A stretch of 64,000 nucleotides of DNA, taken from the IMG/VR virus record IMGVR_UViG_3300032240_003128. One strand, written 5' to 3'. Origin of the DNA: a virus. The notes beneath the pieces were generated by a model. That model did no database searches, had not been told where the DNA came from, and saw only the letters and a list, made by a program, of their open reading frames with translations. Position numbers and translations under genes: made by a program. Positions 2,911 to 51,756 of this stretch are shown here, one piece after another (the first letter of the stretch is position 1; each line of letters begins with the position of its first letter).

Positions 2911-3882
2911 TTATCCGTAATTTGCTCGTGTATTTGGACTTCCTGTTTTTACAACTCGATCATAAGCATCCATTAATTCTTTATAAATTTCAGATTTTTT
3001 AGATTCGGTATTTACACGGTAATAAAAATCTAACAGACTATCAATATCAGTATTTTTGCTTCTCAAATCACTTATAAGTACCTCAGAAGCAGCCAATAAA
3101 AGTTTAATTTGGTGAGAGCTAGAATTTTTTTCTTTTGCAAACGCATTGCACCATTCATCATTATTAAGAATATAATGAAAAATTCTTTTTTCATCTTCTG
3201 GCAAAAAAGCAACAAGTTGCTTTGCATATTCTTTCAAACGATCTACAGTTAAATCAGCTATTTTAAACAATGATTCTTTGCTCATATAATTTTTTATTGC
3301 TGCAAGACGCACACCCATTTCTCTGGGATCGTTTAAATATTGAAACCAAGCACTCGAACCTTTTTTGGTATCATCTTGTTGTCCCGGAGGAAAAAAACGA
3401 ACTGCACCTTGGCTTCTATTAAAGGGGGTTTCGCCTTGTTGAGTTGTATGTCGTAATTCGTGAGCTAATGTTTCTGCTCCATCTTTTGTTAATTTTCCAT
3501 CTGATGTGGGAGTAGGAAGTTCAGCAAAAGCATTATTAGGCATAACCATAGTTTTTGAACTTCTGTTAAAATATGCTCTAGTACTTGCTCCCATAACTCT
3601 TGTCAATCCGCTTCTTGTCACAACAAGCATTCTTACTGGTTTGTCAAAAAATTCTTTAGATGTTGCAAATCCTATATCTCCCTGACTAGGTTGTTGTAAT
3701 TTATTAAAATCTGCATCCCATTTTTTAACGTCAAATTGCGCATTTCTTATCAGTTGTTTTGGTATTACATTTTTTTGAATTATTATTTCATCAGGTCTAT
3801 ATTCTAGATTATTTTGTTCATCTTGTTGTTCTGTAAAATATCGTGGATAATTTGTTTTTAACCATTCAGCAAAATTTTTCAT
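2911..3882 (-). CDS. Putative zincin metallopeptidase with internal-protein-like N-terminal tag
   Basis: Start MKNFAEWLK; TLAHELRHTTQ (HExxH) with a downstream YLNDPREM glutamate. Confidence 0.6.
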   Translation of the reverse strand: MKNFAEWLKTNYPRYFTEQQDEQNNLEYRPDEIIIQKNVIPKQLIRNAQFDVKKWDADFNKLQQPSQGDIGFATSKEFFDKPVRMLVVTRSGLTRVMGASTRAYFNRSSKTMVMPNNAFAELPTPTSDGKLTKDGAETLAHELRHTTQQGETPFNRSQGAVRFFPPGQQDDTKKGSSAWFQYLNDPREMGVRLAAIKNYMSKESLFKIADLTVDRLKEYAKQLVAFLPEDEKRIFHYILNNDEWCNAFAKEKNSSSHQIKLLLAASEVLISDLRSKNTDIDSLLDFYYRVNTESKKSEIYKELMDAYDRVVKTGSPNTRANYG

Positions 3883-3906
3883 TTTATCACCTATCATATT
3901 TATGAT

Positions 3907-4530
3907 TTATTTTAGGTTTTTCAAAGCATTTTCGGTCATTACAATGAATTCCCAGTTTCTTTTTTTGCAATAAACATTTGCTGCTTTCCATTTAGCAATG
4001 TTTTTGTTCCACTTTGTTTGTGATTTTGGTTTTATTTCCCACAATTCTATTTTTCCATCTGTGTATTCTACCAATATGTCGGGAATGTAATTGTGTGTTC
4101 CTCCATTGAAGGAATATTCTATTTGCAAGCTTTCTGCTTTGTATTTTCTTACTTTAGGGTTTTTCTCTAAATGTTTGATAAATTTTAATTCTAAACCGCT
4201 TCGAAAAAATATATTACAATGATTTTTTTCTGAATAAAAATTGCCTTGCTTGAATTTAGTGCCCTTTTTGCCAGTCCTTTTTACTTTTTTTTTTACATCA
4301 CGAATTATAAGTGCTCTTGTTTGAGTTCCCGGAGGAATCACTTCGCCAATATGCTTGGATCGATAATGAGCGATCAAATCTCTTGTAGGTATGCTGCAAG
4401 AGGGGCAAATGACGTAATCATCACCTTCTTTATGTTCTGTGACAATATGTGAACGAAAAACATCTAATTGATCATAACTTTGTTCGCAAATGAAACAACA
4501 ATAGTTTCTACCTGTATTTTTTTTGTCCAT
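3907..4530 (-). CDS. TnsA/T4 gp4-like PD-(D/E)XK endonuclease with two N-terminal C2H2 zinc fingers
   Basis: CFIC..H...H and CPSC..H...H; FRSGLE, YIPDILVEY, EIKP, K.KAA..YC....WEF.VMTE. Confidence 0.75.
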   Translation of the reverse strand: MDKKNTGRNYCCFICEQSYDQLDVFRSHIVTEHKEGDDYVICPSCSIPTRDLIAHYRSKHIGEVIPPGTQTRALIIRDVKKKVKRTGKKGTKFKQGNFYSEKNHCNIFFRSGLELKFIKHLEKNPKVRKYKAESLQIEYSFNGGTHNYIPDILVEYTDGKIELWEIKPKSQTKWNKNIAKWKAANVYCKKRNWEFIVMTENALKNLK

Positions 4531-4548
4531 GTAATAATATATATTTAT

Positions 4549-4914
4549 GTGAAGACTTTTATCCAATATATAACTGAAGAAAGAAAAAATTCAGACTTCA
4601 TGACAAGTCTGAAACTTTTTAATATTGACCCTAAAAATGCAGAACGAGCTATTGAAAAATCGCCATCTGTTTTTGCACAGGCTCTTTATGGCGATGACGA
4701 AGTAGGAGCATCTGCCTTTGATGTAAAAAAAATCGGCAAGAATTACATGATGAAAAACAGAAATGTTTTTGGTAATTTGACTTACAAAGATCACATCCCA
4801 TCAAAACTACAAATGAAAACAATAGTAACGCCTACCTTCGTTGATTATCTTAAAACACAAGGTTTAGCAGGATCTGAAAAATACAATGATTTTCTAAAAG
4901 GTAAAAAGGCATGA
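4549..4914 (+). CDS. Hypothetical protein with internal-protein-like tag
   Basis: In-frame GTG at 4549 gives (M)KTFIQYITEE and removes the overlap with the divergent gene. Confidence 0.6.
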   Translation: MKTFIQYITEERKNSDFMTSLKLFNIDPKNAERAIEKSPSVFAQALYGDDEVGASAFDVKKIGKNYMMKNRNVFGNLTYKDHIPSKLQMKTIVTPTFVDYLKTQGLAGSEKYNDFLKGKKA

Positions 4915-5120
4915 AAGGCTTCAAGAAATGGCTCCAAATTGATGAAGTAGCTACTAGCACAGCAGATGTGGCTCATTTCTCATTGCCTATCGGTGCTGGT
5001 ATGATTAGTAGAACATTTCCCCAGTTTTTTAGTGTCGGGCAGCATGGATTAGGTGGACCAGTTCAGCAATTAACTGATACAGATTATGTTAAACCAAAAA
5101 GGAAAAAGAGGCGATCATGA
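4911..5120 (+). CDS. Small protein with internal-protein-like tag and basic tail
   Basis: MKGFKKWLQIDE...KPKRKKRRS; overlapping start/stop with both neighbours. Confidence 0.65.
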   Translation: MKGFKKWLQIDEVATSTADVAHFSLPIGAGMISRTFPQFFSVGQHGLGGPVQQLTDTDYVKPKRKKRRS

Positions 5121-5584
5121 TAACATTTTATGATTTTTTAGCTGAACAAGATGCACCATTACCACCGCTAGGACAACCACAGCAGCAACAAGGACAGCAG
5201 CAAGGTCAACCACAGCAGCAACAAGGTCAGCAGCAAGGTCAGCAACAAGGTCAACCACAGCAGCAGCAAGGACAGCAGCAAGGTCAACCGCAGCAAGATA
5301 ATATTCTTGTCCACAGAGGTATTCAATATGACAAGGCACAAGTAAAAAAATATATATTCCAAGTTTATGATGACTTATATCAAAAAGAAAATAAGCTTCA
5401 ATTTTTTGTAATGGATATGTTTGAAAATGATCCAAAACGTAATGAAATTCAACAAAAAGTAGCAGCCGAACACATGAAAATTCATGATATTATTGAAGAT
5501 ATTAAAGCGTATTATCAAAGTGTATTACAGCCAAACACACCAAAAGAAACGAGAAAGTGGCGTTTCGGAGATACTAAAAAATAA
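5117..5584 (+). CDS. Gln-rich protein with internal-protein-like tag
   Basis: MITFYDFLAEQ followed by (GQPQQQQGQQQ)n. Confidence 0.7.
   Translation: MITFYDFLAEQDAPLPPLGQPQQQQGQQQGQPQQQQGQQQGQQQGQPQQQQGQQQGQPQQDNILVHRGIQYDKAQVKKYIFQVYDDLYQKENKLQFFVMDMFENDPKRNEIQQKVAAEHMKIHDIIEDIKAYYQSVLQPNTPKETRKWRFGDTKK
5170..5297 (+). repeat. Coding tandem repeat (GQPQQQQ/GQQQ units)
   Basis: Repeated caaggtcaaccacagcagca / ggacagcagcaa units. Confidence 0.85.
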
Positions 5585-5601
5585 AACAATTGGAGTTAAT
5601 A

Positions 5602-6159
5602 ATGAGTACATTCACAGATTTTTTAAAAAATAAAAAAAAATTTGTTGTTCAAGAACAAGGCGTAATAGGAGGTCCATTAGTTGATGGAGCACTTGAAGGA
5701 TTAGGCGTTAATGATAAAATGCGAGGTGTTGGTAAAGCTTTAGGACAAGGAGCCAAGGACACTATTGCAGGAGTTGGTAAAGCTTTAGGACAAGGAGCCA
5801 AGGACACTGCTGTAGGAGTTGGAAGAGCAGTGTTTGGTCAAAATCAAGATTTTACTCGTAATAATATGGCACAACTTGGTGTTGGCGAAGATACAAGAGA
5901 AGTTAGAAGGAAGTATTCAGAACTCCAGAATGCTCTTGCTAATTATTACAATGTTATTAAAAGCAGTCCTACTTTGAGAAAATCTAAACAAGGTCCAGCA
6001 ATTGCCGAGCGTATTCAAAAAGTGTTGGAAGAAATTGAAGATGATTTAGAAACAACTTATAACATGTATCAACAATCAGAAAAAAGAATTCGACCACTTA
6101 ATCCGATTAATGATCCAAATTTAGCAAATCCTCAAAGAGGATTTATTAGACCAGAGTGA
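5602..6159 (+). CDS. Hypothetical protein with tag and 15-aa tandem duplication
   Basis: MSTFTDFLK...VQEQ; GVGKALGQGAKDT twice at 45-nt period; GGAG Shine-Dalgarno. Confidence 0.7.
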   Translation: MSTFTDFLKNKKKFVVQEQGVIGGPLVDGALEGLGVNDKMRGVGKALGQGAKDTIAGVGKALGQGAKDTAVGVGRAVFGQNQDFTRNNMAQLGVGEDTREVRRKYSELQNALANYYNVIKSSPTLRKSKQGPAIAERIQKVLEEIEDDLETTYNMYQQSEKRIRPLNPINDPNLANPQRGFIRPE

Positions 6160-6300: not shown

Positions 6301-6354
6301 ATTTGTATTCATTCTTTTCTATGTTATAGTAATTAAATCTTAGAGGATGATACA

Positions 6355-7715: not shown

Positions 7716-8066
7716 TCAAGTAGGACAGTATGCTTTCGATCTAATTGATGATTTTTTATAATAAGTTGACTTTGCGGGATAGATAGGCTTATTAACTGTT
7801 GGTGTATTGTACAACTTGGGGGAAGATGGACTGGGAACGACTTGCTGAAGAGACTTTTCTTTTTCTGGTGGATTTTCTTTTAGTTCTTTTTTTTGTTGGT
7901 CTGCCTTTAATAACTCTTCTTTACTGTTTGCATCAAGTTCTTTAATCAATTCTCTGATTTTTGCTTTTTCAATTTCCTTTTTGTTTGGAAATTTTACAAC
8001 TGGTAATTCTTCACCAAAGCAAATTTTGCTAAATACAAACAGTAAAGGAAGAATTAAATATCTCAC
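7716..8066 (-). CDS. Exported protein ending CPT-UGA (possible CxxU selenoprotein extending to 7707)
   Basis: Signal peptide MRYLILPLLFVFSKICFG; 3' end tgt cct act TGA cca agg TAA followed by a hairpin with a GGTC loop. Confidence 0.65.
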   Translation of the reverse strand: MRYLILPLLFVFSKICFGEELPVVKFPNKKEIEKAKIRELIKELDANSKEELLKADQQKKELKENPPEKEKSLQQVVPSPSSPKLYNTPTVNKPIYPAKSTYYKKSSIRSKAYCPT

Positions 8067-8539
8067 AATTTGTCCTCGTCAACAGCTTTTGTAATTGCAT
8101 CGATAATTGCTTCGATAATAAGAGGACCATATTTCTTGCCAATGTATGGAAGAATCTTTTCAATAAAAACCTTAATAAGATTAGAGCTCATTAGGTCAAT
8201 GTTTTCATCTTTGACAAAATTATTGATATCTTCTCTGCTAAGAGCAGCCGCTCCTAGCGTTTCTTGATTTACGATTTCCATTAGATTTGCTTGCATTTTG
8301 TTCTTAGACATCAAAGAAATAAAGAAGTCTAAAACAAATGGACCAAATAGTCTGAAACTTTCCAGAATGAATGCAAACGAAAATCCATTCCTTAATCCTT
8401 CTGTGACAGTGCTAAGGACTTCAGGACCATACTTGTTTAAACAATCGGCAATGAACTCTGTAGAAGCGCCCATATTAAGGGCGCTTTCTTTCATTACCTC
8501 AACATCAGCCAACGAATATCTTGTTTCTGGTTCGCTCAT
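8063..8539 (-). CDS. Alpha-helical hypothetical protein
   Basis: AGGAG Shine-Dalgarno before MSEPET; repeated KYGP/LFGP helical motifs. Confidence 0.65.
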   Translation of the reverse strand: MSEPETRYSLADVEVMKESALNMGASTEFIADCLNKYGPEVLSTVTEGLRNGFSFAFILESFRLFGPFVLDFFISLMSKNKMQANLMEIVNQETLGAAALSREDINNFVKDENIDLMSSNLIKVFIEKILPYIGKKYGPLIIEAIIDAITKAVDEDKL

Positions 8540-8549
8540 TTCAAGCTCC

Positions 8550-9356
8550 TTATACTTTAACAATAGGTACATCGTCTGTCTTATCTTGATCTAGATGATC
8601 TTCTATAACACCTTGGAACGCAAAACAATCAAGCTTGCTTCGGCTTTCAAAATGTTCTTTTCTAACATAGCAATAGCCACCTAATCCAAAGCTGGAACCC
8701 CAACTATTTTGGAGCTTTACCAACCAGCCATATTTGCTGTGTTGCTTTATTCCGCAGGCAAGCATTGAGTGTCCACCACCACCGCCATTTGGAAGTGGAG
8801 CAATGCCTTCTGAATCGACTTTGGTAAAGTTAGATCCAACAAGGATGCCGATGTTTACAACAAAACCAAGGCTGATTGCTTGGCAAACTTCTTCAAATGT
8901 GTTACATTGATAAGCATATCCTAGCTTAAATCTAGCAGCATTATCATAAGCAGCTTTGGTTAAACTGCTCTTGTAATAAACACGGTCATGTGGAAATGCG
9001 CTTGTTTCACAGATTCCATACTTTCTAAGCATGTTAAGGCTATCTGAAATATAAGCCCCACCATCTTGTCCACCATTAATCAAAGCATAGTGGAAGAATG
9101 GATTAAAGTCTTTTTGAACATTTTGACGTTGTTTTTGTAAAATTTCCATACCAGCAGCAGATGCATGAGCTACGCAACTGCTAGTTGATTTTTGGTTTAA
9201 GATTCTATGCCCTTGCCAAGACATATCAATTTCTTTTAGAACAGCAGCATCAAAGCTCCTGAATGAATCTCCAAATTTTGGAGTATCGTTTTCTGGGCTT
9301 GGGGTATGGGAAAGGATACGGTAATAGCCGTCGAAATATATTGATGGAAAACTCAT
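8550..9356 (-). CDS. Papain-like (C1A) cysteine peptidase
   Basis: NQKSTSSCVAHA (oxyanion Q, catalytic C), GGHSMLACG (H), QNSWG..FG.GGY (N). Confidence 0.9.
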   Translation of the reverse strand: MSFPSIYFDGYYRILSHTPSPENDTPKFGDSFRSFDAAVLKEIDMSWQGHRILNQKSTSSCVAHASAAGMEILQKQRQNVQKDFNPFFHYALINGGQDGGAYISDSLNMLRKYGICETSAFPHDRVYYKSSLTKAAYDNAARFKLGYAYQCNTFEEVCQAISLGFVVNIGILVGSNFTKVDSEGIAPLPNGGGGGHSMLACGIKQHSKYGWLVKLQNSWGSSFGLGGYCYVRKEHFESRSKLDCFAFQGVIEDHLDQDKTDDVPIVKV

Positions 9357-9357
9357 G

Positions 9358-10113
9358 TTATTCTCCCTTTGTAATTTTGTTTAAGACTTTAACAACTTCT
9401 GCTTCTGTTTTTGGAATAGAACTGTAATAAAGAACAGTTCCATCAGTCTTTTGTACAACAAACAGGTTATTACTGTTTAACTTCTTAAGAAGTGTGTCCA
9501 TCTTCTTTTGCTTAACTACTAAACTGTTAACATCATAAACCTTGTAAAAACTTTTTGTTTTCAGAATAATATCTCTAATGTCTTTGCTGTTTAAAACAGC
9601 TGCAATATCTGGTGTTGACTCGTTATAATCTGTCAAAAATGTAACATGCAAACCTTCTGGAACCTTTTCTATTACTACATCTGGATCAACAGGATCGGTT
9701 GGGTCTGGTTTAACAGGATCTGGCTTTACACCTTTTACAGTAATGTCTGTTCTTGCAAAATCTGTTAGTTTTCCGTCCACAAGCGCAATAGCAAAAACAT
9801 TAACACTTCCAGATTGAGGAACAGAAACTATAAGGCTATTTCCAGCATCATTGGAAACATATTTAACTTTGCTGTTGCCAACAACAAACCATTTAACTGT
9901 ACCTTTAGACTTTGCTTGGACTACAAGAAACCCTTCACTGCTATCAACTGTGATTGGTTCAGGTAGCTCAAGTCCTTCTACTTTATTTGTAATAGAATAT
10001 ACGGGCGATTGAGGAATTGGTGGTGGTTCAACTGCTACAAGTGAATTAGTTTCAGCAGAAAAACAAGTAAATGCTAAAGCAAATAGCAACAAAATGCTTG
10101 ATAGAAGTTTCAT
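9358..10113 (-). CDS. Exported two-domain protein with Pro/Asp linker
   Basis: Signal peptide; beta-rich N-domain; KPDPVKPDPTDPVDPD linker; alpha/beta C-domain. Confidence 0.7.
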   Translation of the reverse strand: MKLLSSILLLFALAFTCFSAETNSLVAVEPPPIPQSPVYSITNKVEGLELPEPITVDSSEGFLVVQAKSKGTVKWFVVGNSKVKYVSNDAGNSLIVSVPQSGSVNVFAIALVDGKLTDFARTDITVKGVKPDPVKPDPTDPVDPDVVIEKVPEGLHVTFLTDYNESTPDIAAVLNSKDIRDIILKTKSFYKVYDVNSLVVKQKKMDTLLKKLNSNNLFVVQKTDGTVLYYSSIPKTEAEVVKVLNKITKGE

Positions 10114-10140: not shown

Positions 10141-11466
10141 TTAGAATAGTTTGTTTTCTGTAATTAATAACCACTCAGAAAAAGTAATATTTTTATTTTC
10201 TTGAAGTTTTGACAAAAGTTTACCACTTCCTTTACCTTTTTTATCACATAATTCTGGATTATTACTGCAAAATTCGTCTACAGATTTATTTATTTGCGAT
10301 AAAGATAAAGCGATAATTTTCCAATTTTCACTACTTGTTCTTAATCTCCTATCAAAAGCCGGATAGTGGTTTTCAATAGGGTTGTAAATATTTGCCACAC
10401 GTCTAAAATCTTCAATCGCATCATTTGTAAACGCATCATCTGCAAAATCGCATTGTCTTGACATGAAAGCTTCAATAATTTTGGTTAACAAAAGATTCCA
10501 ATTTTCATTTCCTAAATAATTAATATTTTTTCTGTGTTTTTTAAATATTTTTTTCTGACCATTTTCCACTTCTGCATGTCTATAAAGTCTTTGTATAAGC
10601 TTAAATGCGTTAAAAATTGGCTTATTTGGTACATCTTCTCCATTATCTCTAAAGTATTGTTCTATGTTTAATATAAGTTTATTTAAATTTTGCATAAATT
10701 TAAAATTGGTTATTCCGCCTAGAATTGGAATACTAGGTTCAGGAGGTGTTGAAGGAGGAGTATTGCTTGCAGCGACTTCTTCATCTGGAGGTGGTTTTGT
10801 GACAGAAGAAGGTGAGCCAAATTCTTTATCTGAGGCTGGTGCTGCAATAGATGAAACTACGCCTAGTCCTTGGATTTGATCTGGAGTCACATTAAATTTT
10901 TCTGCATCTAATCCATTTATTCTATTTGGAGCGACATTGAATCTTTCTGCACCTAAAGAGATATTTTTTCTACGTTCTTCAACTTCTTTAGCATGTTCTT
11001 CAGCAGCTTGTTTTTTGGCAGCATTTTCTTTAGCTTCTTCTTCAGCACGTTTTGATTTTTCTTTAGCATCTTTTTCAGCAATACGTTCTTCTTCGGTTTG
11101 TATTAGTTTTTCAAGTTTTATTATGTTTAGATTTATAGTCGGCTCTTTTTTTTGTTTGTCTCCTTTTCCTTTGTAAGATTCACTTAGTATTATTTTAAAA
11201 TTATATTTTAAATTTCTGTAGATGCTCTCTGCTCTTGCTTTGTCTATAGGCAATAGTTTTCCTAAAATTTTGCTTTGATACTTTTCGCCTATCAACTTGT
11301 TAGCATATCTTTTAAAAGCTTGGTCAACTTTGAAAACAAAATTTTGTTCTTCTTCTTGCAAATTAACACTGCCAAACATATTCCTTATGAATTTGGTAAA
11401 GTCTTCATTTATGTTTTCCAGTTTATGTTCTTTTTCTTTTAAGAAATTGCTAAAATTTTTGCTCAT
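10141..11466 (-). CDS. Hypothetical protein with tag-like motifs at both termini
   Basis: MSKNFSNFLKE...LENINE; C-terminal ITFSEWLLITE; central coiled coil and Pro-rich linker. Confidence 0.7.
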   Translation of the reverse strand: MSKNFSNFLKEKEHKLENINEDFTKFIRNMFGSVNLQEEEQNFVFKVDQAFKRYANKLIGEKYQSKILGKLLPIDKARAESIYRNLKYNFKIILSESYKGKGDKQKKEPTINLNIIKLEKLIQTEEERIAEKDAKEKSKRAEEEAKENAAKKQAAEEHAKEVEERRKNISLGAERFNVAPNRINGLDAEKFNVTPDQIQGLGVVSSIAAPASDKEFGSPSSVTKPPPDEEVAASNTPPSTPPEPSIPILGGITNFKFMQNLNKLILNIEQYFRDNGEDVPNKPIFNAFKLIQRLYRHAEVENGQKKIFKKHRKNINYLGNENWNLLLTKIIEAFMSRQCDFADDAFTNDAIEDFRRVANIYNPIENHYPAFDRRLRTSSENWKIIALSLSQINKSVDEFCSNNPELCDKKGKGSGKLLSKLQENKNITFSEWLLITENKLF

Positions 11467-11483: not shown

Positions 11484-11888
11484 TCAAGTTAAATCGACAT
11501 GTCTAGAAGTTCCTTTCCCCAAAATATCATATGCTTTTTTCATTATTTTAAAGTTGAGAGAATTGTTTAGTAAATTGTGTATATTGCCTGATAAGAATTT
11601 TCTTATATCTTTTTGTTGAGGTGGTGTAGCTCCAGTAGGCTTAACTCTTACTAAATTTTTAACAAAATTGTCAATAGCAATATTTAAACGCTTTTCCAAT
11701 GCATCTTCGGCTTCATGCATGTCGGCAGTTCCTGCGCTAGTGCCAAGACCTCTTTTGGCACCAGCAATAAAACCGCCAACTCCTCTTAGGATGTCTTCAA
11801 GGGTTTCGTTATAATTACAATCTTCTATTTTAAATCCTTTTTGTTCTAGAAATTTATTAAATTTTTTTCTTCTAAAATTGAAACTCAT
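11484..11888 (-). CDS. Hypothetical protein (tagged family)
   Basis: KKFNKFLEQ...YNETLE followed by a Gly/Ala-rich helix. Confidence 0.6.
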   Translation of the reverse strand: MSFNFRRKKFNKFLEQKGFKIEDCNYNETLEDILRGVGGFIAGAKRGLGTSAGTADMHEAEDALEKRLNIAIDNFVKNLVRVKPTGATPPQQKDIRKFLSGNIHNLLNNSLNFKIMKKAYDILGKGTSRHVDLT

Positions 11889-11908: not shown

Positions 11909-12352
11909 TTATGCGATAAAATCAATTAACGCTGTATCTATTTTTTTCTTAAATTCTTCCATGTTTGTTTTTATTATTTTGTTTAAATTTGTTGATAAAT
12001 TAATAGAAAAGTTTTTAAAATGTGTTTCTAATTTATTTTTTAATAACTTTTCGGCTTCTTTAATTTTAGTGGTTAAAATTTCTTCAACTTCACTTTCATC
12101 ATCAGCATCAAGAAGAGATCTACTTAAAGCATCTACAGCAACATCTTTAGCTGCCGAAGCAGCAATACTAGCTCCAGTACCAATACTTGGTAAATATTTA
12201 CCAAGTGATTTAAAGGTATTTCCTGCCTTAAAGGTATTTCCTGCCATTGATGCGACTCTTGGAATTGCTCCTACTAATCCTGCATATTCATTGATTTCAG
12301 AGTTTGCACTCTGAATTTTTCTATCTTTTATAAAATCGTAAAATGTTTTCAT
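11909..12352 (-). CDS. Hypothetical protein (tagged family)
   Basis: MKTFYDFIKD...EINE followed by a Gly/Ala-rich segment. Confidence 0.7.
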   Translation of the reverse strand: MKTFYDFIKDRKIQSANSEINEYAGLVGAIPRVASMAGNTFKAGNTFKSLGKYLPSIGTGASIAASAAKDVAVDALSRSLLDADDESEVEEILTTKIKEAEKLLKNKLETHFKNFSINLSTNLNKIIKTNMEEFKKKIDTALIDFIA

Positions 12353-12364
12353 TTTTTTCCTTCA

Positions 12365-12661
12365 TCATGGGAAATATTCACGCACAGCATAATCGATCAA
12401 TTTTCTTATGTTGGCATCAAAAGCATCTTTCATGTCATTTATTTGCATTTTGCTATAGCCAGCTTTGTTTAAGCTTGCTTCAAAACTTTTCCATGCAGTG
12501 TTTATTTCCGTTATCAGGGTGTCTTTTGCCGCATCTTTGTTATCTGTGCCTGTAGCAGAACTGTAACCAGCCATGCCACCACTAATTGCTCCACTGATAC
12601 TTCTGTAAGGGTTCATAATAAAATCGAACATACCTTCATTCAACTTTTGTTTTTTATTCAT
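12365..12661 (-). CDS. Hypothetical protein
   Basis: MNKKQKLNEG; TAAATA element upstream on the minus strand. Confidence 0.6.
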   Translation of the reverse strand: MNKKQKLNEGMFDFIMNPYRSISGAISGGMAGYSSATGTDNKDAAKDTLITEINTAWKSFEASLNKAGYSKMQINDMKDAFDANIRKLIDYAVREYFP

Positions 12662-12693
12662 TTCGTACCCCTTTGCTTAACTATATTTATTTC

Positions 12694-14186: not shown

Positions 14187-14196
14187 TAAATAAATA
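14187..14196 (+). promoter_or_regulatory. T4-late-like TAAATA promoter element
   Basis: TAAATAAATA 5 nt before the ATG at 14202; the same element precedes genes at 12661(-), 25561(-), 44808, 46207 and 51756(-). Confidence 0.5.
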
Positions 14197-14201
14197 GAGA
14201 T

Positions 14202-14567
14202 ATGTTATCATTTAAACAATTTTTAAATAATTTAGAAGAACAAGCTGCCACTACTCCAGCTACTGGTGTTACTCCTGCTGCAAGTACAACTCCAGCTACA
14301 TCTAATCCAACTGCTGCAACTGCTGCCACTACTAATGCATCTGCTAAAACACAGCAAGTACCTCCAGCGACCAGAAGCAAGCTTGATGCTGCTGCTCAGA
14401 AGAACGCAGCTGCTATGCGGCTTTATCAGACAGGTAAAACAAAAGAAGCGGTTGACACATTGAGAAAAGATCCTAATTTTCAATTAGCAATGCAAGATTT
14501 AACCAAAACAAGTTCTCCAGCTAATGCTTCTCAGTTGGTAAATTTTGCTTTGGGTGGCAATTCATGA
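14202..14567 (+). CDS. Ala/Thr-rich protein (tagged family)
   Basis: MLSFKQFLNNLEEQ followed by a low-complexity ATTPA segment. Confidence 0.7.
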   Translation: MLSFKQFLNNLEEQAATTPATGVTPAASTTPATSNPTAATAATTNASAKTQQVPPATRSKLDAAAQKNAAAMRLYQTGKTKEAVDTLRKDPNFQLAMQDLTKTSSPANASQLVNFALGGNS

Positions 14568-14710
14568 CATTTAAAGATTTTTTAAAAATTGATGAGGCAA
14601 ATGGTCATGGCGGTAAACGTCATAACTCATTTACTGTTTTAAGGATGAATTATCGTAATCAACAACCAGTTTCTATTAAAAAACAAACAAAAAAACTATT
14701 TAAGATTTAA
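14564..14710 (+). CDS. 48-aa protein (tagged family; not in ORF track)
   Basis: ATGA overlap with the upstream gene; MTFKDFLKIDEANGHGGKRH...; stop overlaps the next start. Confidence 0.6.
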   Translation: MTFKDFLKIDEANGHGGKRHNSFTVLRMNYRNQQPVSIKKQTKKLFKI

Positions 14711-18075: not shown

Positions 18076-18090
18076 TATGAGGATTGAAAA

Positions 18091-19284: not shown

Positions 19285-19286
19285 TT

Positions 19287-23354: not shown

Positions 23355-25262
23355 TTAATTGCTTTTAAAATCATCTAATTTGTCAATATTTTCTTGATTT
23401 AAAATTTTTGCCATGTCATCTTTGTTTATTATTTTCCTTGCAAGCAATGATTTAATATGGTCGGCAGATAATTTGTTAATGTTATCTGGACCCAATGCTT
23501 CTATAATTTCTTTTCTGGCAGCGTTGTTGTATCCCTTGCCACTAAGACAAGCAAAAACATTATTAGCAGATAATTCTGTTTTATATGTAATTATAATCTT
23601 TATTATTTTGTATGTTTCAACTTGATAAAAGACAAGATTATCAACACTATTATCAGATAATTTATTCATATTGCGTGAACCTAAGATTCTTGCCATTTCA
23701 TGTTTGTTTTCTGATCGTTCAAGCAAATTATAGACGTGAAAATCACCTAATTTATCAATATTATTTGAACCTAATAATTCTGCCATTTTATATTTATAAG
23801 GTGCTTCGTTAAGCAATTCATAAGCATAATCAGCAGTTAATTTATCTATATTATTTGAACCTAAGATATTTGCTATTTCTGTTGATTCAGAACTATTGTA
23901 TTTCAACAAACTATAGACATCATGACCTGTTAATTTATCTATATTGTCTTGACCTAATTCTTCTTTAATTTTATATTTATTTTTTGCACTTTTGATAAAA
24001 TACAAAACATTCTCATCAGATAATTCTGATTTTTTAATTATCTCTGATATCAAATTTTGATTTTCCGTTCTATTAGCAAATACTATCTTGCTATTAAGAT
24101 CCAATGAGTTGACATAACCGCTTGTGTTTTTGGCAAAATCAAATTGATAATTACTCAAATTTTGCAATTTTCCTAATACAAATTCTTTCTTTTGATCATC
24201 AGTAAGTGTGTTAAAATCTTCATCTGTCATCTTATCTACAACTTTCAAATACATAGGGAAAACTCTAGGATCAGGATCATTCTTGGCAAATTCGAAAGCT
24301 ATCCTGTCAGTGTATAATTTTAAATTTTGTTCCCAAATTTCGGGTTCTGTTGTTGTCCAAGTGCTTTCAGGAATACCTTTACTTGCCAAATATCTTTTAT
24401 ATTCATTTATACTTGTATATCCATTGATACCAATTTTTGATCTTGTGTCTTCTGGGTCTCTAGAATGTTTGTTTTCAGCATCAACCCACTCAGAAGATTT
24501 ACCTTCTGGAGCTACACCCGGATTAACATATCTGGCTGGATCATTTTCATCTTTATTAAAATCGAAGACAAAGTATTGAGTTTGATGATAACGTATTCTG
24601 TAATCAAACCAATGTGATGCCGAAGTTGAACTGGAAATGCACCATCTTTGGTTTTTACCAAATATTCTACATATGTCTGGCGTATCGCCTTTGAATACCC
24701 AAACATTATCGCCTTTGGCTGCTAGGTTTTTTTGATATTTTCTTTCTCCAGCTATTGGGTTGAATAAACCTGATTTTTGTTCGTATTTAGTTAAACTGCC
24801 TTGGATTGAGTGTAATTCTGATTCAAATTTTGTAAAATCATTAAATTCTTCAATTTTTTTATCTTTGTTTATATAAATTTTATTGTTTTTCACTTCTAAG
24901 CTAATGATTTCGTTGCCGATGAACCTTCTGAGAAGGTTCATCATTTCTGTTACTCTGTTTTTATCTTCGTTTTTGAACAAAAGAAAAGTGTCAAATTCTG
25001 GTTTAGTTATTTGATTTGTGTTTAATTTGTCTTGATAGAATTTAGTTTGTCCATCTTCTTGCTTAATTAATTTTTGTTTGATTAATGGAAATCTTTCTCT
25101 CAATCTGGCAAATGCAGCTTTTCTATCAACTGGATCTGGTTCATCTTCAAGTTCTTTAATAAAAGCTGCAAGTTCATCTTTAGGCGATTTATCCTGTTCT
25201 AATGCTCCTTTTATTTGAGCATCTAATGTTTCAGACAATACAAACCAAAGCTTGAAGTTCAT
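23355..25262 (-). CDS. Repeat-containing protein (tagged family)
   Basis: MNFKLWFVLSE; central GKNQRWCIS segment; about 5 C-terminal LGxxNIDKL repeats of about 37 aa. Confidence 0.7.
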   Translation of the reverse strand: MNFKLWFVLSETLDAQIKGALEQDKSPKDELAAFIKELEDEPDPVDRKAAFARLRERFPLIKQKLIKQEDGQTKFYQDKLNTNQITKPEFDTFLLFKNEDKNRVTEMMNLLRRFIGNEIISLEVKNNKIYINKDKKIEEFNDFTKFESELHSIQGSLTKYEQKSGLFNPIAGERKYQKNLAAKGDNVWVFKGDTPDICRIFGKNQRWCISSSTSASHWFDYRIRYHQTQYFVFDFNKDENDPARYVNPGVAPEGKSSEWVDAENKHSRDPEDTRSKIGINGYTSINEYKRYLASKGIPESTWTTTEPEIWEQNLKLYTDRIAFEFAKNDPDPRVFPMYLKVVDKMTDEDFNTLTDDQKKEFVLGKLQNLSNYQFDFAKNTSGYVNSLDLNSKIVFANRTENQNLISEIIKKSELSDENVLYFIKSAKNKYKIKEELGQDNIDKLTGHDVYSLLKYNSSESTEIANILGSNNIDKLTADYAYELLNEAPYKYKMAELLGSNNIDKLGDFHVYNLLERSENKHEMARILGSRNMNKLSDNSVDNLVFYQVETYKIIKIIITYKTELSANNVFACLSGKGYNNAARKEIIEALGPDNINKLSADHIKSLLARKIINKDDMAKILNQENIDKLDDFKSN

Positions 25263-25561: not shown

Positions 25562-25592
25562 GTTTCACCTCTACTTTATTTAGGTTTTTCGC

Positions 25593-33183: not shown

Positions 33184-33521
33184 ATACATTCGAACATTAT
33201 AATCTTTTATGGTTAAATTGTGAGTTTTTTAACAAAAAACCAGCAAAAGAACATTTTTTTCTTTACAAATATTTTAAAAATAAAATTCAAAAATTAATAA
33301 TGGAATATTTTTACGTCATGGGAGAAGAAAATATTTATCTTTTCCAAGATCACACAGGCTATAAAGTTTCTCCATCTTTTTTATATAAACAATATTTTAA
33401 ATTTAAGAGTTTGATTAGCATATATAATAAAGCGAAGATTGACTTTGATTTTGATACCTTGCGTAATTTAGATCAGGGAAAAATCAAAATTAAAGATTTA
33501 GGAGTAAAAAATGCTGATTAA
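33180..33521 (+). CDS. Hypothetical protein
   Basis: Coupled ORF. Confidence 0.5.
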   Translation: MNTFEHYNLLWLNCEFFNKKPAKEHFFLYKYFKNKIQKLIMEYFYVMGEENIYLFQDHTGYKVSPSFLYKQYFKFKSLISIYNKAKIDFDFDTLRNLDQGKIKIKDLGVKNAD

Positions 33522-33744
33522 ATATGCTGATTGGCGCAATATGAATGAATCATCACCTATGACCCGTCAAAGATTGGGTTGGGGTAGAATGGGTACTTAT
33601 CCACTTAGAGCTGATTTCATGTCTCATAGCACCCCACCTCCTGACATTATGAACAAAATGATTGATATTTTTGGAACAACTGACGGAGAACATAAACCAA
33701 AACATAAACCAAAGCATAAGAAACGCAGGAAGAAACATGGTTAA
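33511..33744 (+). CDS. Small protein with tag-like start and basic tail
   Basis: AGGAG Shine-Dalgarno; MLIKYADWRNMNE...KPKHKPKHKKRRKKHG. Confidence 0.6.
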   Translation: MLIKYADWRNMNESSPMTRQRLGWGRMGTYPLRADFMSHSTPPPDIMNKMIDIFGTTDGEHKPKHKPKHKKRRKKHG

Positions 33745-34507: not shown

Positions 34508-34509
34508 TT

Positions 34510-35043
34510 TTGGTAGACATTAATCGTTTGCGTGTTAATTTTCAGATTCGTATTCCACAAGTAAGAGTAATGCAAAATGGAGAACAGTTAGGCATTATGC
34601 CTACTGAAAAAGCCAGAAATTTAGCCTACGATCAAGGTCTAGATTTGGTTGAAATGGTTCCTAATGCCAATCCACCAGTTTGCCATATTTTAGATTATTC
34701 TAAATATAAATACGAACAAAAAGTCAAGCATAAAGATCATATGAAAAAGCAGCGAGAAATGGTCCAAGCTGTTAAGGAAATAAGATTATCTCCTGCAATT
34801 GGACAACATGATCTTGACATAAAAATCAAACATATTATTGAATTTTTAAATGAAGAGAAAAAAGTACAAATTTACATGAAATTTAGATCAAGGGAAATGC
34901 AACACAAGGATGTTGGTTTTGAAAAAATTAATCAAATCTTAGAGAAATGTAAAGAATCAGCCAATGTGGAATTATATCCTAAATTTGAAGGATCAAAATT
35001 AATTTGTCGTTTGGCTCCGCAAAAAACAAAAGTTTCAAACTAA
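34510..35043 (+). CDS. infC: Translation initiation factor IF-3 (non-AUG start)
   Basis: RVN.QIR..QVRV, GLDLVE, PPVC.ILDYSKYKYE, VKEIRL, HDLDIK, FRSRE. Confidence 0.93.
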   Translation: MVDINRLRVNFQIRIPQVRVMQNGEQLGIMPTEKARNLAYDQGLDLVEMVPNANPPVCHILDYSKYKYEQKVKHKDHMKKQREMVQAVKEIRLSPAIGQHDLDIKIKHIIEFLNEEKKVQIYMKFRSREMQHKDVGFEKINQILEKCKESANVELYPKFEGSKLICRLAPQKTKVSN

Positions 35044-35095: not shown

Positions 35096-35410
35096 ATGAG
35101 TGAGACGGGTAAGGTTGTTGATTGCAAACCTTGTGGTAATCAAGTTTTGATTGAGCTTTTGACTACTCAGGAAATGGCTAATACTAAGCTTATTCTTAAT
35201 AACACCAATAAGAAGCTTGGTGCAGAATATCAAGCTATTGTTCTTGCTGTTGGACCTCAAGTAAATTTTGAATCATTTGGATTCAAAATTGGCAACCGAG
35301 TTGTTATTTCAGGTAATGCGGTTCCTGCGCCTGAATATGGTCCAGAAACTGAGCGAGAAAAGGTTCTTGTCGATCCTACAGCCATTAAAGCTGTACTGGT
35401 TTGTAAGTAA
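35096..35410 (+). CDS. groES: GroES-like co-chaperonin
   Basis: KPCGNQVLIE, VLAVGP, KIGNRVV, IKAVL. Confidence 0.75.
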   Translation: MSETGKVVDCKPCGNQVLIELLTTQEMANTKLILNNTNKKLGAEYQAIVLAVGPQVNFESFGFKIGNRVVISGNAVPAPEYGPETEREKVLVDPTAIKAVLVCK

Positions 35411-35849
35411 CTTTTTTAATTTTGTATATAGGACGCATGTAATCAGGACCGCAAAATGACGCTTCTATATCAATTATATTTGACGCACTCAAGCTAAAGT
35501 CTTTTCCTTGTCTTTGGAAAACGACCTTTAGCTTGGTGTGTTTTGGGACCAAAGGTGTTTCACCTTTTATTGTTCTGTATTGTGTCGGACTGAAAAATAA
35601 TTTTGTTCCATCTTCTAATTCAGCTTCAATTATTTTTGTCTTATCAGATAATCTTTTTACCATGCCTTCTTTTGTGACGGTGGGAATGTCAAAAATACCA
35701 TCATTGATTGCCATGTCTATATCTGGCAAGTGATTGGGACGACCTGTGTATCCTAAAGTTGATACTGCTTGTGATCCGGTATCGCTACTTGTAACCATAG
35801 CGCCGGGAAACAGACTCATACTTTCTATAAATTTTTTAAAACCAATCAT
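35385..35849 (-). CDS. Hypothetical protein (tagged family)
   Basis: MIGFKKFIES. Confidence 0.6.
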   Translation of the reverse strand: MIGFKKFIESMSLFPGAMVTSSDTGSQAVSTLGYTGRPNHLPDIDMAINDGIFDIPTVTKEGMVKRLSDKTKIIEAELEDGTKLFFSPTQYRTIKGETPLVPKHTKLKVVFQRQGKDFSLSASNIIDIEASFCGPDYMRPIYKIKKVTYKPVQL

Positions 35850-37660: not shown

Positions 37661-38116
37661 ATGAAGATTAGCCAAGTTTTCAAGTTGCTTGATTCTATCG
37701 CAGACGATTATAACATTATTTTTAAGACACCAGATTGTAAACTTCTTCCTTTGCATTTTCATGTAACTGAAGCAGCTAGTGTTCAAAAGAAGTTTGTAGA
37801 TTGTGGTGGTGTTGAAAGAGAAGAATCTTATGCTTCTATTCAGTTATGGACTGCTGATGATTACGATCACAGAATTACTACTGGTAAATTAAGAAAAATT
37901 ATTCTTAATAATTTGATCCAAACTGATAATGATATGGATTTATTTGTTGAATGTGATGATAATAGCTTAACAACTTACACTGTTGAAAGTTCTGAAATTG
38001 CAGGAAAAACTATTGCTTTCCTTCTTGGAAAGAAAACTACACAATGCCTCGCACCAGATAAGTGCGGTGTTAAGGAAGCTCCTAAGAAATCTTGCTGCAA
38101 AGGCGAATGCTGCTAA
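37661..38116 (+). CDS. DUF6428-like protein with Cys-rich tail
   Basis: HFHVTE...FVDCGG...QLW.ADD.DHR...CLAPDKCG...CC...CC. Confidence 0.7.
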   Translation: MKISQVFKLLDSIADDYNIIFKTPDCKLLPLHFHVTEAASVQKKFVDCGGVEREESYASIQLWTADDYDHRITTGKLRKIILNNLIQTDNDMDLFVECDDNSLTTYTVESSEIAGKTIAFLLGKKTTQCLAPDKCGVKEAPKKSCCKGECC

Positions 38117-38547
38117 TTAATGCTTTTAATAAAATTGATTAGTTTTGGATTATTGTATGTTTCTATGCGATGATTAGCATAGTTTGATGCAAAAAACATA
38201 CAGAAAAGTTCTTCTTCATCCATCTTTGGCTTGCCCTTATACAAACGGGCAAGCTTTTTCCATTCTTTCTTTTGCTCATTTGTTATTGATTTTTCCCAGA
38301 TAAGATGAGCAATTTCATGCAAAAAAGTAAATTCTCTGCCATAATTCCATGGAGCAGCTACTTCAATATCAAACTTGTGTATTACACCTATATGATCTTC
38401 ATCGCCATTTAAAGTGTTTTTGCATGTTAGTTTTATATTAAAACTTTTTAATAATTTCTGATATTTTTTAGGCAATTTAGCAATAGTGTTTTGAAGATTT
38501 TTTTCTTCTTCAGATTTTTGTTCTACGAATTGAATAAAACTTCTCAT
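38113..38547 (-). CDS. Small zincin metallopeptidase (tagged family)
   Basis: MRSFIQFVEQ; TFLHEIAH; EELFC..FA third-ligand segment. Confidence 0.7.
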   Translation of the reverse strand: MRSFIQFVEQKSEEEKNLQNTIAKLPKKYQKLLKSFNIKLTCKNTLNGDEDHIGVIHKFDIEVAAPWNYGREFTFLHEIAHLIWEKSITNEQKKEWKKLARLYKGKPKMDEEELFCMFFASNYANHRIETYNNPKLINFIKSIN

Positions 38548-38562
38548 GCCCTATATATGGGT

Positions 38563-48593: not shown

Positions 48594-48607
48594 TTTGTGA
48601 TTAATGG

Positions 48608-48889: not shown

Positions 48890-48930
48890 TTGTTTTTAAA
48901 ATGCCAGTTAGCTGTAATATATAATCATAG

Positions 48931-49409: not shown

Positions 49410-49513
49410 ATGTTACCTCTCCTTGGTGTCAGAAAGACACACTTAAATCTTCCAATTTAATTGAGTGTATCCAACTAATTTAAATAGGATTTATTTGGAT
49501 CAAGGGTATAATT

Positions 49514-49942: not shown

Positions 49943-49954
49943 ATGATTGGTTTG

Positions 49955-50815
49955 TCAAAGTATCAAATTTTTTCCTCGATAGGTATGCCAATCAGATTTA
50001 TTTTTATACAAATCTAGATTTGAATGGTATTCTGTAAATCTTTTAGTTTTTTCACCAAACCAATTTGTGTGATCTTTGATGATTTTGTTGTAATTGTTAT
50101 AAAGATATGTTTTTTCTGGTTCTGCTAGCCACAGAATTAGATCCTCATTTGGTATCCCCCACAATTTTCTTTTTACTAGATTTTTTTCTTCATAGTTTAA
50201 ATTTTTAATAGAAATTAATTTTTCCTTGTACTTGAAGATAAATTTATTTGAATACAGTCCTATTGACATAGATTGCCAACTTCGAAGAGCTACTTTTTCA
50301 ACATATTCTGGGACATGGAGCATTGAATTTTTGAATCTTGGTCCAACTTTACATGTATCATGAATAAAGAACCAAAATGGACTTGAAAGATCAGATTCAA
50401 TAATGTCAATAAACGCTGAATTCTCAAATGAATTGTGATCAAGAAATCTAAATTCAATATCGCTGTGATATTTTTGATAGGATTTTTCATTTCCTGCTAT
50501 AAAAACTATTATATTTGTTTTTTTAATTCCATGTTTAACCAATGATGGCAATATTATTGGAAGTGTTTTTTTATAGAACTTTTCATGACTTCCTACTGCT
50601 ATTTTAACTTCATTTTCATCAAGTGGCTTGCTGTCAGGATAATTTGTACTATTTATTATCCTTGGTCCAGATATGAAATCTTTTCTTTCTTGACAACTTA
50701 GTATATCTTCATTTAAAGTATTAGACGATTTGCTAACATAATATTTAATATCATCTTCATTAGGATATCTTCCTAGAAACGTAATAAACATTTTTTTGAT
50801 TTTTTCTTTCGTCAT
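49955..50815 (-). CDS. Possible glycosyltransferase-like protein
   Basis: FLGRYP N-terminal module; WFFIHDTC motif; lies next to the glycosylation cluster. Confidence 0.4.
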   Translation of the reverse strand: MTKEKIKKMFITFLGRYPNEDDIKYYVSKSSNTLNEDILSCQERKDFISGPRIINSTNYPDSKPLDENEVKIAVGSHEKFYKKTLPIILPSLVKHGIKKTNIIVFIAGNEKSYQKYHSDIEFRFLDHNSFENSAFIDIIESDLSSPFWFFIHDTCKVGPRFKNSMLHVPEYVEKVALRSWQSMSIGLYSNKFIFKYKEKLISIKNLNYEEKNLVKRKLWGIPNEDLILWLAEPEKTYLYNNYNKIIKDHTNWFGEKTKRFTEYHSNLDLYKNKSDWHTYRGKNLIL

Positions 50816-50817
50816 TT

Positions 50818-51756
50818 TTATGCATTATTTTCTCTGTTCTCTAGCCACTCACTAAAACTAGGCATGTCGTATTCTTTCAACATGTATTTTTTCTTACTTT
50901 TACGCCATGTTCCGCCATGTTTCTTGTAATCTTTTGCTGCCCATGCATTTGCATAAGCTGAATTTCCTGTAACGCATGGTTGATCATTAACACTGGTCAC
51001 CCATGTGCCTAATGAAGTTTCTGGACACCAAACCATCTCGTTGCCAGACGGATGTATTTCAAAATTACTTAGCAAAGGCATCCCATTATCAACAAATAAC
51101 TTTGTATAAGATTGGAATCCCATTGTAGATTCAAGCAATAATTGATCGTTTTGTTCAACAACCCATTTGTGATCAAGAGTGGATGTGCAGAAATAATGTC
51201 CATCAGTGTAAATTTCATGCACAGGAGCATTCTTGTGAATATGTATATTCTCTATTTTAACAAACTTTCTTATTCTGTCATTTAGATCAAATGCAGCAAT
51301 TTCATCTCCCACTTTTAATTCATTGAAGTATTTCCATCCATCTTTAGTTAAAGCTGGATATGATACAGGCAAACATGGATACACATCAAATTTACTTTTG
51401 GCTTTTGCTTTTGATTTTGCCCATAATGCAGGATTGTTTGGTAAATTTTTACCTTCACTAAGATTTTCGTGGGATACCATAACTGGTTTCCTCCCTTTAT
51501 GATGAGACTTTTTCTTTTCAGCTCTGCGTTTTTGGGCAGTAGCCTTTTCTTTAAGCTCAGGACTCATTGCAGCGGCTTTTTTTGCTGGACGGCATTTGGG
51601 GTAAGCTTTCTTCTGATCGCCTTTTCTAGACCCCTTTTTGGCACTTGCACCGCATGGGGGATGTTTACCTGATTTGTCTTTGCGAGAAATGTCTATCCAT
51701 TTCTCATCAAACCATTTACCAAGACCTGAGTTTTTGTATGTTTCGTTAATATCCAT
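50818..51756 (-). CDS. Basic DUF5872-like protein interrupted by a mini-intein
   Basis: GLGKWF.EKW.D...CG...YPKCRP; KFDVYP|intein|SAYANAWAAK.YKK.GG.W. Confidence 0.75.
   Translation of the reverse strand: MDINETYKNSGLGKWFDEKWIDISRKDKSGKHPPCGASAKKGSRKGDQKKAYPKCRPAKKAAAMSPELKEKATAQKRRAEKKKSHHKGRKPVMVSHENLSEGKNLPNNPALWAKSKAKAKSKFDVYPCLPVSYPALTKDGWKYFNELKVGDEIAAFDLNDRIRKFVKIENIHIHKNAPVHEIYTDGHYFCTSTLDHKWVVEQNDQLLLESTMGFQSYTKLFVDNGMPLLSNFEIHPSGNEMVWCPETSLGTWVTSVNDQPCVTGNSAYANAWAAKDYKKHGGTWRKSKKKYMLKEYDMPSFSEWLENRENNA
50962..51375 (-). mobile_element. Mini-intein (138 aa, no endonuclease)
   Basis: Block A CLPVSYPALTKDGWK...LKVGDEI; block B STLDHKWVV; blocks F/G VWCPET...VTGN followed by Ser+1. 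Confidence 0.88.

Follow-up and report, generated by a model that had tools for sequence, protein, structure and literature searches.

A terminal peptide tag resembling the T4 capsid-targeting sequence on unrelated proteins of an uncultured huge phage and its relatives

The window described here is the whole of a 64,000-nucleotide stretch of phage DNA (IMG/VR record IMGVR_UViG_3300032240_003128), and 15 of the proteins encoded by its ~80 genes carry at one end a short peptide tag of the pattern M-x-x-F-x-x-[F/W]-[L/I]. The tag is real and modular, is under selection at the protein level, and occurs across the clade. On balance, we consider it likely from sequence comparisons that phage T4's capsid-targeting sequence (CTS) has here been expanded, in the form of this tag, into an extensive code for loading cargo, one that would work at C termini too. 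The phage probably packs and injects dozens of proteins, which could be predicted from their sequences.

The window (G+C content, 32 to 38%) belongs to an uncultured, T4-related phage of roughly half a megabase; a genome size near 480 kb is implied by the CheckV completeness of fragments from close relatives (18 to 23% complete). These close relatives in IMG/VR (L053 to L055 and L099 to L101) have DnaE proteins that are 73 to 89% identical to that of the window where compared. The closest complete genomes are LR756511.1 (595 kb) and an IMG/VR genome with terminal repeats (G001, 572 kb), both with a DnaE 42% identical to the window DnaE.

The tag consensus is M-[K]-[T/S/N]-F-x-[E/D/Q]-[W/F]-[L/I]-[E/K], where positions 4 and 7 are aromatic and position 8 is aliphatic. 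Position 4 is F in 10 of 11 window tags and in 40 of 46 LR756511.1 tags, position 7 is F or W in 11 of 11 and 38 of 46, respectively, and position 8 is L, I, or V in nearly all tags. We scored enrichment with position matrices trained on the N termini of another genome, the matrix for the window being built from LR756511.1 N termini only. With this matrix, 10 of 891 N-terminal positions in the window scored as tags, compared with 4 of 16787 internal positions (odds ratio = 48, P = 8e-11), and C-terminal positions were also enriched (5 of 1215 versus 5 of 16787 internal positions; P = 3e-4). The reverse test, with the window matrix applied to LR756511.1, gave an odds ratio of 7.5 (P = 5e-18), and the third genome, G001, gave 23 (P = 5e-25). 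Controls scored with the LR756511.1 matrix were near background, with odds ratios of 2.0 (P = 0.2) for a complete 194-kb T4-like genome and 3.6 for T4 itself. From the internal hit rate, about 5 of the 39 hits in LR756511.1 are expected by chance.

A preliminary description of this DNA had proposed scanning relatives with a tag profile, and that scan found the same tag on 30 to 45 proteins in each of the two complete genomes (~40 in LR756511.1 and 30 to 45 in G001), as well as in arrays on IMG/VR contigs. Orthologues in close relatives (DnaE 73 to 89% identical) retain their tags. An exact DNA pattern for MKTFxEWLE matched only 25 IMG/VR stretches, many of them on contigs of 140 to 570 kb and with G+C contents ranging from 30 to 54%, and genes adjoining these matches were often tagged too, up to five in 7 kb. 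G001 also has an array of C-terminal tags (257358-259281, minus strand), in which three tandem paralogues each end in ...HWAMASE[SG]FKEWL[KR]....

The tagged proteins had been described as unrelated, which is borne out by an all-against-all BLASTP search of the window that returned one paralogous pair only (11484-11888 and the untagged 12365-12661) and by a mean column identity of 4% over 72 tagged proteins from three genomes. Codons at the conserved residues vary (TTT or TTC, five Leu codons, GAA or GAG), and the upstream DNA is unlike between copies. Since synonymous codons vary freely and upstream DNA differs, selection acts on the peptide.

In the relatives, the tagged genes form a co-regulated class. 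In LR756511.1, 23 of 39 tagged genes have a TA-N-ATA box 3 to 22 nt ahead of the ATG versus 89 of 1011 other genes (P = 5e-14), and in G001, 13 of 30 tagged genes have one versus 82 of 897 others (P = 2e-6). From the end of this box to the ATG there are mostly 4 to 5 nt, and tagged genes less often have a Shine-Dalgarno-like sequence (10 of 39 versus 511 of 1011), suggesting from the nucleotide sequence that tagged genes in the relatives are expressed as leaderless late messages. The capsid and portal genes likewise follow TAAATA or TATATA boxes, there with longer leaders. In each of LR756511.1 and G001, about 40 to 60 untagged genes have the same box-near-ATG arrangement, and in the window TA-N-ATA boxes 4 to 5 nt before an ATG are also seen at 14187-14201 and 38548-38560. 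The window encodes a full-length translation initiation factor IF3 with both Pfam domains (34501-35043, plus strand); IF3 discriminates against leaderless messages.

The shared N terminus might instead be a by-product of expression, through a 5' coding requirement of leaderless late messages, or of a mobile cassette consisting of a promoter and the first codons. Many tagged genes in the relatives are indeed of the leaderless type, with the box 4 to 5 nt before the ATG and few Shine-Dalgarno-like sequences, and efficient starts typically have A-rich second and third codons such as those seen here (AAA ACN, giving K-T). However, the same peptide occurs at C termini and as internal duplicates, synonymous codons differ among copies with unlike upstream DNA, the leaderless arrangement is common to many untagged genes, and the tag is retained in operon-internal genes that have no box. 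The C-terminal copies and the codon variation therefore argue against an artifact of expression or recombination, to which we give only a very slight probability.

The closest known counterpart is the N-terminal CTS borne by T4's internal proteins IPII and IPIII, which is removed by the prohead protease gp21 (Mullaney & Black 1996, reviewed in PMC9026906, PMC9958956, and PMC3012670). Both proteins start with MKTYQEFIAE, as read directly from the T4 genome (NC_000866). Amber-suppressor genetics of IPIII assigned residues 4 and 7 to capsid targeting and residues 8 and 10 to processing, and gp21 cuts after L/I-x-E, with Alt also losing a C-terminal propeptide (PMC9026906). The conserved positions 4, 7, and 8 of the tag coincide exactly with the CTS determinants mapped by T4 genetics.

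In the complete relatives, head machinery of the T4 type accompanies the tag. The gp21-like protease that the preliminary description had suggested looking for elsewhere in the genome was recovered in both of them, where an S77/gp21-type protease (35 to 38% identical to gp21 of T4-like phages) is found together with a T4 portal. Profile matches in LR756511.1 were strong for S77 (E = 7e-28), Gp23 (E = 5e-87), and the portal (E = 1e-74); G001 matched S77 (E = 8e-27) and the portal (E = 3e-70), the search for Gp23 having covered LR756511.1 only. S77 was also present in six of eight large contigs that had been found only via the tag pattern, both complete genomes included. Two tagged genes, encoding a NADAR protein and a 1076-aa (amino acid) protein, lie inside the LR756511.1 head-gene cluster and adjoin the capsid gene, and LLE and FNE occur in that part of the capsid protein whose alignment falls immediately ahead of the maturation site of T4 gp23. 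A 616-aa gene adjoining the protease was at first taken for the portal, wrongly, as the T4-type portal is the 857-aa gene at 531014-533587; a 310-aa gene is a putative scaffold by its position only. Far from this head module, LR756511.1 has a second, diverged S77-type head maturation protease (242240-243133, minus strand; PHROG 207, E = 6e-27), comparable to the protease paralogue of SPN3US.

Most tags had been said to be followed by an (I/L)-x-E site, and this is moderately supported in the wider sense that such a site occurs within 19 residues (7 of 11 in the window versus 12 of 70; P = 0.003) but not in the strict sense, since it stands exactly at positions 8 to 10 in only 3 of 14. In LR756511.1, [L/I]-x-E follows the tag in 15 of 46 cases versus 197 of 1011 (P = 0.04), and L-x-E occurs just upstream of both long C-terminal window tags.

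Several observations weigh against equating the tag with the T4 CTS. The T4 processing residue (Glu at position 10) is found in just 3 of 14 window tags, the commonest pattern in the relatives, W-L-E, does not fit L/I-x-E, and the candidate cleavage sites upstream of the relatives' C-terminal tags have A or F at P3. An S77 match was not found in the close IMG/VR relatives of the window (fragments of 18 to 23% completeness without head genes), and the head module of the window's phage is inferred from genomes only 42% identical in DnaE. The preliminary description had placed a TAAATA element upstream of several tagged genes, yet in the window itself neither TAAATA nor TA-N-ATA is significantly enriched, because most tagged genes sit inside operons; 4 to 5 of 9 transcription units in the window have a box, and boxes head the tagged operons at 12684, 14187, 25577, and 51769. 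In T4, gp61.1 (54 aa) starts with MKTFKEFIKE and is not known as a packaged protein, one tagged protein of LR756511.1 is primase-like (possibly a false positive), and the way in which the T4 CTS attaches to the prohead core is still termed "mysterious" (PMC9958956). The gp61.1 gene (NC_000866, 18966-19130, minus strand) lies beside the primase gene 61 and encodes a near-perfect CTS with I-K-E at positions 8 to 10, and judging by this N terminus gp61.1 may be an unrecognized packaged protein.

Some of these observations would fit a tag that sorts proteins to another hub made late in infection instead of to the prohead; this hub could be a chaperone, a factor for tail or baseplate assembly, or a compartment or factory built by the phage. 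A terminal helix with a flexible linker, placed at either end and sometimes duplicated, is the architecture of any short linear docking motif; the processing residue is mostly missing, W-L-E being the commonest pattern; the motif occurs within a replication-gene cluster in T4 and on a primase-like protein in LR756511.1; and the window encodes a Cpn10-like protein. In contrast, the conserved positions equal those that T4 genetics has shown to be responsible for capsid targeting, the tag pattern and the S77 protease occur together in genomes, two tagged genes lie among head genes, and no candidate alternative hub was identified. We therefore regard such a hub as unlikely. A broader version, to which we assign a somewhat smaller probability still, is that the tag is no capsid signal but a general sorting code of half-megabase phages, readable at either end, by which at least a tenth of the late proteins would be sent to a different structure or hub built by the phage, with the T4 CTS being one specialized descendant.

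The tagged genes of the window, one untagged paralogue, and some of their boxes are as follows.

2911..3882, minus strand: 323-aa tagged cargo protein (Met at 3882) with leader MKNFAEWLKTNYPRYFTE, a short linker, and an HExxH (HELRH) body.
4549..4914, plus strand: small protein; possible GTG start giving (M)KTFIQYITEE, alternative ATG at 4600.
4911..5120, plus strand: 69-aa tagged protein, MKGFKKWLQIDE...; tail strongly basic (KPKRKKRRS).
5117..5584, plus strand: 155-aa tagged protein, MITFYDFLAEQ, then a Q/G/P-rich low-complexity linker and a helical body.
5602..6159, plus strand: 185-aa tagged protein, MSTFTDFLKNKKK, then a Gly-rich region and a helical body.
10141..11466, minus strand: 441-aa protein with N-terminal tag MSKNFSNFLKEKE, second N-terminal copy EDFTKFI, and C-terminal tag block KLQE followed by NKNITFSEWLLITENKLF.
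11484..11888, minus strand: 134-aa tagged protein, tag from residue 10 (KKFNKFLEQ); paralogue of the untagged 12365-12661.
11909..12352, minus strand: 147-aa tagged protein, MKTFYDFIKD.
12365..12661 (with box to 12689), minus strand: untagged paralogue, first gene of a four-gene operon of tagged genes.
12684-12689, minus strand: TAAATA box, 22 nt upstream of the start of the 12365-12661 gene.
14187..14567 including the box, plus strand: 121-aa tagged protein, MLSFKQFLNNLEEQ, then an A/T/P-rich linker; orthologue in L053.
Starting at 14187, plus strand: box CTAAATAAATA, with its 3' end 5 nt before the ATG of the 121-aa protein gene.
14564..14710, plus strand: 48-aa basic tagged protein, MTFKDFLKIDE.
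23355..25262, minus strand: 635-aa tagged protein, MNFKLWFVLSE, between the halves of the split DnaE.
33511..33744, plus strand: 77-aa protein with a divergent tag, MLIKYADWRNMNE; aromatic residues at 5 and 8, with the same three-residue spacing; very basic tail.
35385..35849, minus strand: 154-aa tagged protein, MIGFKKFIES.
38113..38547, minus strand: 144-aa tagged protein, MRSFIQFVEQ, with an HExxH motif (HEIAH); TATATA box ending 4 nt before the ATG.
50818..51756 (with box to 51774), minus strand: basic DUF5872 protein of 312 aa, tagged at the C terminus only (LKE followed by YDMPSFSEWLENRENNA).

All the N termini listed in the preliminary description are present in the window sequence where it had placed them. 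The start at 3882 is backed by homologues beginning MKNF or MENF, and the GTG start at 4549 is plausible. Its two C-terminal copies are also real, as the 10141-11466 protein ends in ...NITFSEWLLITENKLF and the 50818-51756 protein in ...MPSFSEWLENRENNA, and to these we add the EDFTKFI copy in the 441-aa protein and a tandem C-terminal pair (TFVDYL and KYNDFLKGKKA), kept in L099 to L101, in the 4549/4600-4914 protein. MLIKYADW (33511) and MNFKLWF (25262) are divergent variants of the tag, and both are kept in relatives; the former appears in L053 to L055 as MLIKY.DWR.M.ESSP. Orthologues of the 4911..5120 protein in L099 to L101 read MKGFK[YH]WLKIDE, the L101 orthologue of the 5602..6159 protein begins MSKFTDFLKNKKK, and those of the 48-aa protein read MTFKEFLKLEE, MTFKEFIKMDE, and MTFKEFLKMDE, with the hydrophobic-x-acidic position retained. 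The tag of the 154-aa protein is conserved in L053 to L055, with the linker behind it diverging in L055. Several of the small window cargoes have a Lys/Arg-rich tail. The DUF5872 protein gene (50818..51774) has a TAAATA box 12 nt ahead of its start. A Hint/intein insert considered in this protein was dropped when Pfam gave no support, and the PrkA N terminus MVTLSQFVD was left out as a tag because it scored weakly and was not conserved as a tag in relatives.

Homologue families of tagged proteins have the architecture of a targeting peptide, namely, a conserved tag, an [F/L]-x-E site, a variable linker, and a conserved body. This is clearest in an alignment of 27 sequences of the HExxH family (29 to 95% identity), which falls into four parts: a conserved leader (M-[KE]-N-F-x-E-W-L-K-x-x-x-P-x-[YF]-[FL]-x-E) with its [F/L]-x-E at about residue 18, a hypervariable linker of 0 to ~150 low-complexity residues, the conserved body, and, in the most distant member, a Tat-like signal that takes the place of the tag. 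An AlphaFold2 (AF2) model of the HExxH protein (pLDDT of 84) has a helix at residues 7 to 16, low confidence from about residue 22, and a confident body from about residue 34. The HExxH protein (2911..3882) weakly matches eCIS_core/DUF4157; Foldseek returned nothing at E ≤ 0.001 for this cargo, with the weak rows being mostly zinc peptidases, and VIA-align reached a Z score of about 5 only, on the C-terminal helical bundle.

In the most distant HExxH homologue, P0038, a Tat-like signal (TRRDWLK plus a hydrophobic stretch) stands where the phage proteins have the tag, so that the same body carries a different address. This replacement, together with a short terminal amphipathic helix that has F, W/F, and L on one face and that could be placed at either end as in MinD, FtsA, and MreB, would fit a membrane-targeting helix or cryptic export signal by which late proteins reach the cell envelope. 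Yet D or E occupies +2 in 45 to 59% and +5 in 27 to 41% of tags, which is the opposite of cationic membrane anchors, and the acidic polar face makes such an anchor unlikely. The window tagged proteins also have neither a twin arginine nor a hydrophobic h-region (the Tat pattern being S/T-R-R-x-F-L-K plus an h-region), and the cargo domains are those of cytoplasmic nucleic-acid and nucleotide enzymes. We consider targeting to the envelope very unlikely.

The 441-aa family carries tags at both ends, and these are its most conserved parts. In its alignment (A2), F5, F8, L9, and E11 of the N-terminal tag are invariant, as are almost all residues of the C-terminal tag block; the conservation of the N-terminal tag and of the last 29 residues (…KLQENKNITFSEWLLITENKLF) extends even to a homologue at 27% identity. 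When the 441-aa protein was searched with tblastn in 50,697 phage records, no match was returned. In a long form of the family (P0048; L101 6738-8789), an N-terminal module, KF[IV]x[FL]LVEKR[IV]HP...LLKLTQE, is repeated twice, and each repeat has a Gly-rich stretch behind it.

Tagged genes are gained, lost, and replaced as cassettes between close relatives, and the core genes on either side keep their places. The slot that separates the DnaE halves is filled by the 635-aa protein in the window, by a 450-aa protein in L055 (MMNFKSWLILSE), by a 548-aa protein in L054 (MINICFKEWLHLTE), and by none in L053; the bodies of these proteins are 23 to 36% identical, and all three retain the tag and L-[ST]-E. 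In the window, the 635-aa gene (23355..25262) is cotranscribed with 25268-25561, with the TAAATA box at 25577 upstream. DnaE itself is encoded by two genes (22005-23339 and 25627-28098, plus strand) with two minus-strand genes in between, and this insert differs from relative to relative and is smaller in L053. The clusters at 4.5 to 6.2 kb and 10 to 12.7 kb likewise gain and lose tagged genes across L099, L100, L101, and the window. T-even internal-protein loci turn over in the same way (PMC3012670).

The presence of tagged genes among the replication genes of the window, for example, between the DnaE halves, could be taken to suggest a sliding-clamp (PIP-box-like) or replisome-binding peptide. 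The hydrophobic spacing of the tag (positions 4, 7, and 8) equals that of the PIP box, Q-x-x-h-x-x-a-a, and such motifs also occur at either terminus behind flexible linkers. The tag, however, has no conserved Gln, and its position 8 is aliphatic (L/I/V) rather than aromatic. Moreover, the phage polymerase is of the DnaE type, whose β-clamp motif, QL[SD]LF, differs from the tag; dozens of late orphan proteins would not be expected to be clamp clients, and tagged genes have late-type boxes. A clamp-binding role is hardly probable at all.

Pfam domains were found in about 10 of 72 tagged proteins of the three genomes, and Pfam and PHROGs gave essentially nothing for those of the window. The domains include NADAR, CCA/poly(A) nucleotidyltransferase, HAD_SAK, PNK-like kinase, 2H phosphoesterase, NUDIX, CAP, DUF5661, and DUF5872, as well as HExxH, so the recognizable cargo is, as predicted from these domains, of the counter-defense or repair type. 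The motif is thus not a mark of recognizable early enzymes, whereas an equal frequency at their starts would, by the preliminary description, have spoken against its reading. The other checks suggested there that can be made computationally also favored that reading.

If the tag is an expanded CTS, we infer a mechanism in which it acts as a short, amphipathic helix that docks, corresponding in huge phages to the T4 internal-protein CTS. The tagged genes would be transcribed late, often as leaderless messages, and the tag would bind the scaffolding core or inner shell of the assembling prohead, so that cargo joined to it via a flexible linker would be built into the head. A gp21-type prohead protease may then cut after a nearby hydrophobic-x-Glu site and release the cargo, which would stay with the DNA and be delivered into the next host. 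The tag would be functional at either end of a protein and could be duplicated.

Like the T4 CTS, the tag is typically an N-terminal peptide of ~10 residues with an M-K-T start, aromatic residues at 4 and 7, I or L at 8, and often Glu soon after, and like the T4 internal proteins, its carriers are otherwise unrelated and often small, basic, and fast evolving. The complete relatives also have gp21 and portal homologues, with gp23 found in LR756511.1, and T4 Alt offers a precedent for a C-terminal propeptide. The differences from T4 are that tens of proteins per genome are tagged rather than three or four, that Trp is preferred at position 7 and Glu at 9 rather than 10, that leaders are often longer (~18 aa) with the hydrophobic-x-Glu further downstream, that the tag also occurs at C termini and in tandem, and that cargo includes enzymes and can be as long as 600 to 1000 aa. 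A further difference is that the tag of the relatives is coupled to a leaderless late-type promoter box, and the whole system is known here from sequence alone.

Other systems resemble it in part. Encapsulin cargo-loading peptides are short terminal peptides that, at either end and behind a flexible Pro/Ala/Gly-rich linker, dock unrelated cargo inside an HK97-fold shell. The likeness is one of mechanism only, as encapsulins have another consensus, no protease step, and the shell of a bacterial nanocompartment rather than a virus head. The phiKZ-like giants SPN3US and 201phi2-1 load many head-internal proteins, ejection and inner-body proteins among them, via N-terminal propeptides, which a T4-type protease trims after Glu (PMC5694885, PMC7411985). 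Those propeptides are at least 100 residues long, share no single short motif, and are cut at S/A/G-x-E, whereas here one short consensus is reused. The Dar antirestriction proteins of phage P1 likewise use N-terminal signals to load defense-countering proteins into the head for injection (PMC9024508, PMC12810830), but they assemble hierarchically via DarA/Hdf rather than through one shared short motif, and the P1 head module is unrelated. In a full-text search of the literature, no paper was found that connects the CTS with huge phages other than the phiKZ-like ones.

If the tag is indeed an expanded CTS, sequence would suffice to tell which proteins uncultured huge phages package and inject, with tens of candidates per genome, far above the three internal proteins plus Alt of T4. 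The candidates would include RNA-repair, NADAR, NUDIX, and metallopeptidase-like proteins, resembling preloaded counter-defense tools. Hundreds of natural tag variants, with C-terminal and tandem forms and covarying scaffold and capsid proteins, would provide comparative data for finding the CTS receptor, and this diversity could widen the T4 protein-packaging toolbox. In the relatives, the tag's coupling to a promoter-like box so close to the ATG (4 to 5 nt) suggests that these phages have a late regulon of leaderless messages.

The remaining gene content of the window includes a PrkA/DUF444/SpoVR operon, ThyX, PhoH, and a Cpn10-like gene, in addition to the split DnaE and IF3, and several glycosyltransferases and tail-fiber-like genes. 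The PrkA/DUF444 (YeaH)/SpoVR operon is complete (16003-20882, plus strand) and is kept in L053 to L055 and L099 to L101; PrkA is also encoded in LR756511.1. A papain-like C1 peptidase lies amid signal-peptide proteins (7716-10113, minus strand) in a cluster kept in L099 to L101. Laminin_G_3 (concanavalin-like) domains occur in two large proteins (39251-41884, plus strand, and 57099-59297, minus strand), both near a 1376-aa tail-fiber-like gene, and these are likely structural proteins of host recognition.

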